Below, piece after piece: positions 43,006 through 46,094 of a DNA stretch of 64,000 bases (within the stretch, counting starts at the first letter, position 1; each line of letters starts with the position of its first letter). Under the pieces are notes generated by a model. It ran no database searches. It was not told the DNA's origin and saw only the letters and a list, made by a program, of their open reading frames with translations. Source of the stretch: Escherichia coli. GTDB taxonomy: Bacteria > Pseudomonadota > Gammaproteobacteria > Enterobacterales > Enterobacteriaceae. The stretch lies in assembly GCF_029227855.1 (NCBI RefSeq), contig NZ_CP074356.1, one strand, 5' to 3'. A program made the position numbers and the translations under genes.

Positions 43006-44379
43006 TTATTTTAATAACCGCACCCGGCACGTTTTTCCTTTAATCTTCCCGCCCTGTAACTGTTTCCATGCTTTATGAGCAACAGCCTGACGCACCGCGA
43101 TATAGACATGCGCCGGATGCACGGCGATTTTGCCAATATCTGCGCCATCAAGCCCAATATCTCCTGTCAGCGCACCTAATACATCACCCGGGCGCATTTT
43201 GGCTTTTTTCCCGCCATCGATACATAACGTTGCCATTTCGGCTTCCAGCGGCACAATGGAACTATTAACTGGCGGCGTTTGCCAGTTAAGTTTTATCTGC
43301 AACATGTCAGAAATGATATTGGCCCGCTGTGCTTCTTCCGGGGCACAGAAACTGATCGCCAGACCGCTATTTCCTGCACGCGCTGTACGACCGATGCGAT
43401 GTACATGAACTTCAGGGTCCCACGCCAGCTCAAAGTTCACCACCAGCTCAAGCGATTTAATATCCAGACCTCGCGCAGCAACATCAGTCGCAACCAGTAC
43501 ACGGGCGCTACCGTTAGCAAAACGTACCAGGGTCTGATCGCGATCACGTTGCTCCAGATCGCCGTGTAACGACATTGCACTTTGCCCTACTTCATTCAGC
43601 GCGTCGCAGACAGCCTGGCAATCTTTTTTGGTATTGCAAAACACCACGCAAGAGGATGGCTGATGCAAACTTAATAACCGTTGCAACAGAGGAATTTTGC
43701 CTTTGCTGGATGTCTCATAAAATTGTTGTTCAATAGGTGGCAGAGCATCTGTTGAGTCAATTTCAATCGCTAAAGGATCGCGTTGCACTCGTCCGCTGAT
43801 TGCGGCGATGGCTTCCGGCCAGGTTGCCGAAAACAGAAGCGTCTGTCGAGATGCTGGCGCAAAACGGATGACATCATCAATAGCGTCGCTAAATCCCATA
43901 TCCAGCATGCGGTCGGCCTCATCCATCACCAGCGTATTCAACGCATCCAGTGATACCGTGCCTTTTTGCAGATGATCCAACAAACGGCCCGGCGTTGCCA
44001 CGATAATATGCGGCGCATGTTGCAACGAATCACGCTGCATACCGAACGGTTGACCACCGCACAACGTCAAAATTTTGGTATTTGGCAGAAAACGCGCCAG
44101 CCGACGCAATTCACCTGCCACCTGATCCGCCAGTTCACGCGTAGGACACAGCACTAAAGCCTGGGTTTGAAATAGCGACGCATCAATTTGCTGTAACAAG
44201 CCGAGGCCAAAAGCCGCCGTTTTGCCGCTGCCGGTTTTCGCCTGCACGCGAACATCTTTTCCGGCAAGGATCGCCGGAAGCGCGGCGGCCTGCACCGGCG
44301 TCATGGTTAAATAACCCAACTCATTAAGGTTCGTGAGTTGGGCGGGAGGCAAAACATTCAGGGTAGAAAAAGCGGTCAC
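43006..44379 (-). CDS. dbpA: ATP-dependent DEAD-box RNA helicase (23S rRNA-dependent)
   Basis: 457-aa ORF with AKTGSGKT Walker A and DEAD box; GTG start giving MTAFSTLNVLPP. Confidence 0.92.
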   Translation of the reverse strand: MTAFSTLNVLPPAQLTNLNELGYLTMTPVQAAALPAILAGKDVRVQAKTGSGKTAAFGLGLLQQIDASLFQTQALVLCPTRELADQVAGELRRLARFLPNTKILTLCGGQPFGMQRDSLQHAPHIIVATPGRLLDHLQKGTVSLDALNTLVMDEADRMLDMGFSDAIDDVIRFAPASRQTLLFSATWPEAIAAISGRVQRDPLAIEIDSTDALPPIEQQFYETSSKGKIPLLQRLLSLHQPSSCVVFCNTKKDCQAVCDALNEVGQSAMSLHGDLEQRDRDQTLVRFANGSARVLVATDVAARGLDIKSLELVVNFELAWDPEVHVHRIGRTARAGNSGLAISFCAPEEAQRANIISDMLQIKLNWQTPPVNSSIVPLEAEMATLCIDGGKKAKMRPGDVLGALTGDIGLDGADIGKIAVHPAHVYIAVRQAVAHKAWKQLQGGKIKGKTCRVRLLK

Positions 44380-44408
44380 AATCTATTCTCGTGGTCATCG
44401 ACGCAAAG

Positions 44409-44582
44409 TTAGCAGGCGCGTATCCTCGCAGATCTACGCTCACGATGCGACAATTTAATCGGTTCTTCATCGGGTGGTGGGTCAGGCATGGGTTGCGGAC
44501 GAGGGATCGGATCGGGCACTGGAACAGGATCGCCAGGAATCGGTTCAGGGACAGGAATTTGCAAATAAATAAGTGTCGTCAT
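44409..44582 (-). CDS. Candidate small proline-rich ORF (57 aa) just upstream of dbpA; hypothetical
   Basis: ATG at 44580-44582 with ggaggg RBS 4-5 nt upstream; translation MTTLIYLQIPVPEPIPGDPVPVPDPIPRPQPMPDPPPDEEPIKLSHRERRSARIRAC; below the 60-aa cutoff of the ORF track. Confidence 0.35.
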   Translation of the reverse strand: MTTLIYLQIPVPEPIPGDPVPVPDPIPRPQPMPDPPPDEEPIKLSHRERRSARIRAC

Positions 44583-44639
44583 ATTTCCCTCCGGTCATTG
44601 GGTGGACTCTTAAAGGGTAGACGCTGATAAATAACAGGC

Positions 44640-44761
44640 AAAAAAAAGCCGACTCATCAAAGTCGGCGTCGTACGAATCAATTGTGCTATGCAGTAATTC
44701 AAAAAAGGAAGTAAGACAATATGGAGCGCAACGCCCATCGCTTGACGTTGCATTCACCTGC
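44640..44761 (-). ncRNA. fnrS: FnrS small regulatory RNA
   Basis: Minus strand reads GCAGGTGAATGCAACGTCAAGCGATGGGCG... ending in hairpin gccgactttgatgagtcggc plus T8; recognised from memory. Confidence 0.7.
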
Positions 44762-44856: not shown

Positions 44857-45861
<1,005 letters not shown>

Positions 45862-46094
45862 TTATTTTGTAGTCTAGCCTTCTGGCCCTGTTACGCAACA
45901 TCTCATCACCCCATTACCCTGAAATGATTAATAAAATTCTGTCTAAATTGAATACAAAAAGCAAAATGCTTTTCCGTATACAAATCGTGTGAAGTGTTAA
46001 ATAGCGTCTATCATTATCAGAATTATCTGATCATATGACGTGGCTTTTTTGCGATCGGATAGCAACAAAAATTGATAAAAATAACGGGATCTCA

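Follow-up and report, generated by a model that had tools for sequence, protein, structure and literature searches.

The locus examined here raises the question of whether a 57-codon, proline-rich open reading frame (ORF) immediately upstream of dbpA is a genuine gene, and whether it serves as a translated leader coupling dbpA expression to translation capacity, as had been proposed from the sequence alone. Positions refer to the window, the stretch of 64,000 nucleotides of Escherichia coli contig NZ_CP074356.1 that was analyzed. The ORF occupies 44409-44582 on the minus strand, with an ATG at 44580-44582, a TAA stop codon at 44409-44411 and the product MTTLIYLQIPVPEPIPGDPVPVPDPIPRPQPMPDPPPDEEPIKLSHRERRSARIRAC. 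A GGAGGG Shine-Dalgarno sequence (44587-44592, minus strand) precedes the ATG by 4 nt, and an equally spaced GGAG-type Shine-Dalgarno was present in nearly all orthologues. The stop codon is separated by 29 nt (44380-44408) from the GTG start codon (44377-44379) of dbpA, which encodes a 457-aa DEAD-box helicase (43006-44379, minus strand) and carries a weak GAGAA Shine-Dalgarno. The coordinates, strand, ATG, GGAGGG, 57-aa translation and 29-nt gap given in the original prediction were all correct when checked against the sequence. The surrounding 4.5 kb contained 52 ORFs of at least 30 aa and the size of this one is by itself unremarkable; since its length is common by chance, the case for a gene rests on comparative and published evidence.

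A 601-nt region of the locus was compared by megablast with 5,426 complete E. coli genomes, 5,392 of which were matched at 95-100% identity. Both ynaL and dbpA were annotated under the match in 30 of the 30 matches listed (of 5,392), and zntB in 29 of these 30. The best match, at 100% identity over all 601 nt, was to an O169:H41 pig isolate. In MG1655 ynaL is b4743 (1409308-1409481), flanked by fnrS (b4699) and dbpA (b1343). The ORF of the window and YnaL of E. coli K-12 are the same gene: the 57-aa sequences are identical, both genes are flanked by fnrS and dbpA, and the protein matches the Pfam family PF23677.1, 'Protein YnaL-like', over its full length (E = 2.2e-40; 136.8 bits; residues 1-57 aligned to model positions 1-57 of 57). 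PF23677 was present in all 120 of the YnaL homologues listed (of 164 found). The gene lies between fnrS/zntB and dbpA on the dbpA strand, an arrangement found alike in ∼68 other species. Two bases of this gene region distinguish the window from MG1655: a synonymous change in the ORF, at 44499 (codon 28), and the first Shine-Dalgarno base (44592), which is G in the window and A in MG1655.

The identical 57-aa protein, encoded at the same coordinates, has been detected by immunoblot using a chromosomal SPA tag (VanOrsdel et al. 2018, PMC6001520), and ynaL was also positive in a tetracycline ribosome-profiling screen (cited in PMC6001520). The 57-codon ORF is therefore ynaL, an already known gene that is named, included in Pfam and RefSeq, and experimentally detected. 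Its description as unlisted held for the 60-aa ORF track alone, as RefSeq annotates it as 'proline-rich small protein YnaL'. Likewise, the suggestion of an unannotated small protein without a gene name was borne out insofar as the gene is genuinely translated and was wrong insofar as ynaL/b4743 and PF23677 already existed.

The comparative set consisted of 80 dbpA loci fetched from different Enterobacteriaceae species. A proline-rich ORF with a GGAG-type Shine-Dalgarno lay directly upstream of dbpA in ∼68 of the 80, and 64 species bore the proline-rich core, codons 19-40 (44463-44528, minus strand; PVPVPDPIPRPQPMPDPPPDEE). Substitution rates were calculated across the 64 core-bearing species by the Nei-Gojobori method. 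The core gave a dS of 1.37 and a dN/dS of 0.064, compared with a dN/dS of 0.047 for dbpA in the same species, and when these core nucleotides were translated in the two alternative frames the ratios were 2.9 and 6.8. The core consensus, P-x-P-x-P-D-P-I-P-R-P-Q-P-M-P-D-P-P-P-D-E-E, was near-invariant as a peptide while its codons were scrambled: the 12 core proline codons were invariant or nearly so at positions 1 and 2, with a position-3 identity of 0.36-0.81. The PPP was kept in 62 of the 64 species.

Codons 1-18 (44529-44582, minus strand) are hypervariable between genera, the first ∼18-20 residues differing completely in both sequence and length, and include in E. coli one in-frame copy of a PxP repeat. 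Length variants of YnaL within E. coli and Salmonella arose from in-frame repeat gains or losses of 10-15 aa. The polymorphisms of the PxP repeat region were +11, -15 and -11 aa in E. coli (P0001, P0112 and L004, respectively) and +10 aa in Salmonella (P0053); their pattern points to repeat slippage in which both the reading frame and the terminal DPPPDEE of the core have always been kept. Tandem Repeats Finder returned nothing on the ynaL ORF, although these in-frame repeat-length variants exist. Frame-breaking variants were rare, mostly singletons, and all fell after the core. The frame-breaking changes in orthologues that would have spoken against the prediction were thus confined to these rare cases, all other length changes being in frame, and the proposed comparison of synonymous and non-synonymous change gave purifying selection in the annotated frame only. 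The outcome of this check favours a genuine protein-coding sequence. At the level of codon comparison, the core is shown to be maintained by purifying selection on the peptide. Its presence in ∼68 of 80 species, with a core dN/dS of 0.064 in the annotated frame only, places the ynaL ORF above chance. Selection on the peptide applies to ∼22 codons of ynaL alone.

From codon 41 (PIKLSH...) to the stop codon, conservation was instead at the nucleotide level, with all codon positions frozen. This stretch comprises two blocks and a gap, numbered here relative to the dbpA transcription start site (TSS) described below. Block 1 (CCGATTAAATTGTCGCATC; 44444-44462, minus strand, -49 to -31) also encodes YnaL residues P41-H46, and its third positions were fixed, the codons ATT and TCG each being found in 64 of 64 species. 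Block 2 (AGATCTGCGAGGATACGCGCC; 44415-44435, minus strand, -22 to -2) also encodes the YnaL tail RSARIRA and had no mismatches in 52 of 68 species. The blocks are separated by a variable spacer (44436-44443, minus strand, -30 to -23) that was exactly 8 nt long in 68 of 68 species. For comparison, third-position identity in dbpA of the same species averaged 0.64, and no stretch of dbpA at or above 95% identity was longer than 8 nt. A stop codon (TAG, TAA or TGA) has arisen within the 8-nt gap in at least 12 species, which belong to several lineages; the protein is then a short form, and block 2 is unchanged there though untranslated. Kluyvera has no proline core, yet both blocks and FnrS are kept. 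In five loci from Kluyvera and a relative (L070, L073, L074, L077 and L078; ∼1380-1500) FnrS, a TACCCT element and both blocks were retained and ∼150 nt, comprising the ynaL 5′ UTR and proline core, were absent, probably through a clean secondary deletion of ynaL. Because the tail is conserved even where it is untranslated, and also in the ORF-less Kluyvera, conservation of RSARIRAC belongs to the DNA or RNA and not to the peptide.

The function of the frozen stretch was identified from published TSS data. Kim et al. 2012 list exactly one TSS for dbpA, at 1407501 (+) of NC_000913.2, with 126 reads and a 34-nt 5′ UTR (PMC3415461). The 51-mer given for -50 to +1 of this TSS, ACCGATTAAATTGTCGCATCGTGAGCGTAGATCTGCGAGGATACGCGCCTG (PMC3415461), maps to window positions 44463-44413 and so covers both blocks and the 8-nt spacer between them, which identifies the frozen element as the dbpA promoter. 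The TSS itself is 44413 (minus strand), the G of the penultimate ynaL codon, Cys57, and the 5′ UTR of dbpA is 44380-44413. Outgroups without ynaL (Dryocola, Cedecea, Atlantibacter and Siccibacter) carry at the homologous site ATGACC-17 nt-TGcTAGAAT or similar, an extended -10 promoter that was called by a consensus scan, whereas the E. coli clade has the extended -10 TGcGAGGAT (44422-44430) followed by GC-rich ACGCGCC. From this comparison a TSS near 44415 had been predicted before the TSS data were found, within 2 nt of the mapped position. When the E. coli region was scanned for sigma-70 consensus sites, no dbpA promoter was called, both the -10 (GAGGAT) and the -35 being poor; the promoter is thus non-consensus and was recognized only through conservation, outgroups and TSS data. 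TSS and 3′-end data in four further sources (PMC4782308, PMC11092163, 10.1101/2020.07.18.207399 and PMC10301672) contained nothing for dbpA, ynaL or fnrS, and a TSS for the Klebsiella gene KPN_01374 was not found in the accessible portion of the supplementary data.

Except for its last two sense codons, the whole of ynaL lies upstream of the mapped TSS. As this start falls inside the penultimate codon, the mapped dbpA mRNA excludes ynaL, and the idea of a translated leader is unsupported for that mRNA. Most dbpA transcription begins at the gene's own start, 34 nt upstream of the GTG; ynaL is an upstream neighbour of that mRNA and not its leader. The basic tail RSARIRAC is dispensable, a by-product of reading through the dbpA promoter.

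Several other functions of the frozen block were considered and rejected. A structured RNA was not supported, as RNAalifold predicted 0 pairs (30 species) and the minimum free energy of the E. coli sequence was no better than that of shuffles (z = -0.05). A mimic of 23S rRNA or hairpin 92 for DbpA autoregulation gave a best local alignment score of 19 between the leader and rrlH, against a shuffle mean of 21 ± 2. A CsrA-type GGA hairpin (GCG-AGGAUA-CGC) was set aside in favor of the -10 reading, since outgroups retain the element without the GGA. No convincing match to sigma-E, sigma-32, sigma-28 or sigma-54 sites was seen by eye. A 48-codon ATG ORF in another frame (MKNRLNCRIVSVDLRGYAPA...; 44324-44470, minus strand) spans the dbpA promoter and start, and rare E. 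coli frameshift variants of YnaL (P0003 and P0007) run into it. It appears conserved only because the underlying DNA is frozen and is probably no gene.

Apart from 8 nt, positions -49 to -2 of the dbpA promoter (44415-44462, minus strand) are nearly invariant in ∼68 species, which far exceeds what an extended -10 and discriminator need. The extreme conservation of -49 to -31 is left unexplained by a plain sigma-70 promoter and was counted against the explanation preferred below; block 1 may be a site for some binding factor. The GC-rich discriminator suggests stringent or growth-rate control. Taken together with the enrichment of DbpA in exponential phase (PMC13393375), the 8-nt discriminator suggests growth-rate control of the dbpA promoter, which it would itself confer.

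FnrS is an FNR-activated small RNA, and its gene upstream of ynaL was absent from the original prediction. The gene lies directly upstream of ynaL at 44640-44761 on the minus strand (Rfam RF01796, 134.8 bits, placed by Rfam at 44644-44761; also annotated in MG1655), with an intrinsic terminator at 44648-44667 (minus strand) located by a terminator scan. A candidate ynaL promoter, TTGCCT-16 nt-TACCCT (44614-44641, minus strand), overlaps the U-tract of this terminator; both hexamers and their spacing were kept across genera with a variable spacer sequence. The element was below the threshold of the consensus scan, and the table of Kim et al. 2012 (PMC3415461) contains no TSS between the starts of FnrS and dbpA; ynaL has no mapped TSS. 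Given that no TSS is listed at this element, ynaL may instead be transcribed by read-through of the FnrS terminator, which would be FNR-dependent. The terminator scan found none between ynaL and dbpA, so transcripts starting upstream would continue into dbpA, and a minor bicistronic ynaL-dbpA transcript is possible. VanOrsdel et al. 2018 remarked that ynaL may share an operon with dbpA (PMC6001520). Another tiny annotated ORF below the 60-aa track, the 15-codon 'protein YnaN' of RefSeq, lies directly upstream of zntB (∼45854-45901, minus strand; L001 1500-1547).

The demonstrated gene identity, translation, peptide-level selection, promoter overlap and TSS position are best brought together by a composite gene. 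With high confidence, ynaL is a known, independently translated small-protein gene between FnrS and dbpA that consists of a peptide core and a dbpA-promoter tail. Codons ∼19-40 encode a core of alternating X-Pro, acidic in character and with DPPPDEE at its end, which selection on the peptide maintains, and codons 41-57 read through the dbpA promoter, where the DNA is frozen as promoter and not for the peptide. Transcription of ynaL would start at the weak conserved promoter overlapping the FnrS terminator, arise by FnrS read-through, or both. The mature protein, which is probably disordered, might act in trans as an extended ligand of polyproline-II type, perhaps in connection with the ribosome or RNA on which DbpA works; its close linkage to dbpA points towards a partner of ribosomal or RNA-related kind. 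This analysis adds to the known gene its three-zone anatomy, the assignment of the conserved C-terminal tail to promoter DNA, and a dbpA promoter conserved far beyond sigma-70 needs.

The proline codons 35-37 (44472-44480, minus strand) have Asp on either side (DPPPD) and form the predicted EF-P-dependent stall site. Among EF-P-dependent stall sites, polyproline with Asp before and after it ranks in the strongest class (PMC4176338), and by its motif the sequence is of the ribosome-stalling kind that the original prediction had taken it to be. As D-PPP-D is of this class and is present in 62 of 64 species, YnaL synthesis is likely to depend on EF-P at DPPPD. An EF-P/EfpL ribosome-profiling supplement had no ynaL entry, and a literature search linked neither ynaL nor dbpA to EF-P, nor ynaL to dbpA regulation. 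YnaL is a strongly conserved small protein, with a dN/dS as low as that of its helicase neighbour and an EF-P motif of the strongest class, and is a reasonable candidate for studies of EF-P targets or of DbpA regulation.

Against this explanation, the strict synteny with dbpA, the fixed 15-nt distance between PPP and promoter block and the hypervariable N terminus would also fit a cis-acting arrest peptide. On transcripts from farther upstream, whether from the ynaL promoter or from FnrS read-through, a shortage of EF-P or Pro-tRNA would pause ribosomes at DPPPD and alter dbpA expression via Rho, through lost transcription-translation coupling, or through lost translational coupling; the 50S-assembly helicase DbpA would then be tied to translation capacity. 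The strong EF-P motif, the invariable position of ynaL directly before dbpA, the lack of an intervening terminator, and an arrest-peptide-like order of variable N terminus, conserved pre-stall segment and dispensable C terminus are in keeping with such a leader, as is the fixed PPP-to-promoter distance. Precedents exist in the role of EF-P in maintaining transcription-translation coupling (PMC5021804) and in the proline-codon leaders mgtP and mgtL (PMC3641672, PMC5299641). We nevertheless consider it unlikely, as the mapped dbpA TSS at 44413, inside the last ynaL codons, leaves the ORF out of the dbpA mRNA, and PMC3415461 holds no dbpA TSS upstream of it. RNAalifold found no conserved structure from the proline codons to the dbpA start, and the absence of pairs and the z-score given above weigh in the same direction. 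The stall site is ∼60 nt from the dbpA promoter, which would leave too little free RNA for Rho loading. Selection acts on the peptide over at least 22 residues, and full-length tagged YnaL accumulates. Genera without ynaL retain a similar dbpA Shine-Dalgarno and GTG region, with GAGAG or GAGAA before the GTG, although part of the leader is missing in Atlantibacter. The outgroups and Kluyvera, which have no ynaL, express dbpA from the same promoter region. A narrower form, in which a minority of dbpA transcripts from TTGCCT-16-TACCCT or FnrS read-through is affected and DPPPD pausing or a ribosome-acting YnaL tunes DbpA, is improbable to a similar degree; ribosome biogenesis would thereby be tied to anaerobiosis or to the capacity for polyproline translation.

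It is very improbable that YnaL, nascent or released, acts on the ribosome exit tunnel or peptidyl-transferase centre in the manner of a proline-rich antimicrobial peptide (PrAMP), cooperating with DbpA. DbpA remodels the 23S rRNA region around hairpin 92, and ynaL is strictly linked to dbpA; the composition of YnaL and its PIPRPQPMP stretch presumably recall the PRP motifs of apidaecin- and oncocin-type peptides. Its core is acidic (D/E-rich), however, whereas PrAMPs are basic, and a sequence search against PDB chains up to E = 10 gave no match, ribosome-bound PrAMPs included. Matches to NCBIfam were compositional only (TonB proline-rich region, 20.8 bits against a cutoff of 315), beyond PF23677 the only Pfam match was TonB_N (E = 0.75), and the PDB and NCBIfam searches yielded no structural or sequence homologue. 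Least credible is a chance or pervasively translated frame without selected function, conserved as a side effect of the FnrS-dbpA regulatory DNA. The 3′ third of the ORF is truly conserved as DNA and not as peptide, as this would predict, but the core combines a saturated dS with a low dN/dS in the annotated frame only, the start codon and Shine-Dalgarno are conserved, the indels are in frame and the protein has been detected; the core dN/dS result effectively refutes this reading.

Among known systems, the composite gene ynaL resembles the EF-P- and Pro-tRNA-sensing attenuators mgtP and mgtL of Salmonella mgtCBR and mgtA, in which consecutive proline codons in a short upstream ORF act in an EF-P-dependent manner (PMC3641672, PMC5299641, PMC6460261), in being a short upstream ORF with consecutive proline codons (the Asp-flanked PPP 35-37). 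In the Salmonella systems the ORF lies inside the leader of the regulated mRNA, whereas the only listed dbpA TSS (126 reads) is downstream of all of ynaL except its last codons. The Salmonella leaders also work through alternative stem-loops, and between ynaL and dbpA neither conserved structure (0 RNAalifold pairs, 30 species) nor an intervening terminator was found. The mgtP and mgtL peptides are otherwise unconstrained, while the YnaL core is under strong selection. With arrest peptides such as SecM, TnaC and MifM, YnaL shares a conserved segment of roughly tunnel length that ends at a hard-to-translate site and follows a variable N terminus. The 22-codon core is conserved as a peptide up to and including PPPD, a pattern that fits a functional mature peptide equally; unlike the arrest peptides, ynaL has no downstream RNA rearrangement element, full-length tagged YnaL accumulates, and dbpA has its own promoter. 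Tunnel-binding PrAMPs differ from YnaL in lacking sequence similarity to it and in being basic and PRP-rich where its core is acidic. Compared with TonB, YnaL scores 20.8 against 315 bits, has no membrane anchor or C-terminal domain and is 57 aa only; with the proline-rich rod of TonB (EP/KP repeats) and with X-Pro spacers, it shares the alternating X-Pro pattern and is expected to form an extended polyproline-II rod.
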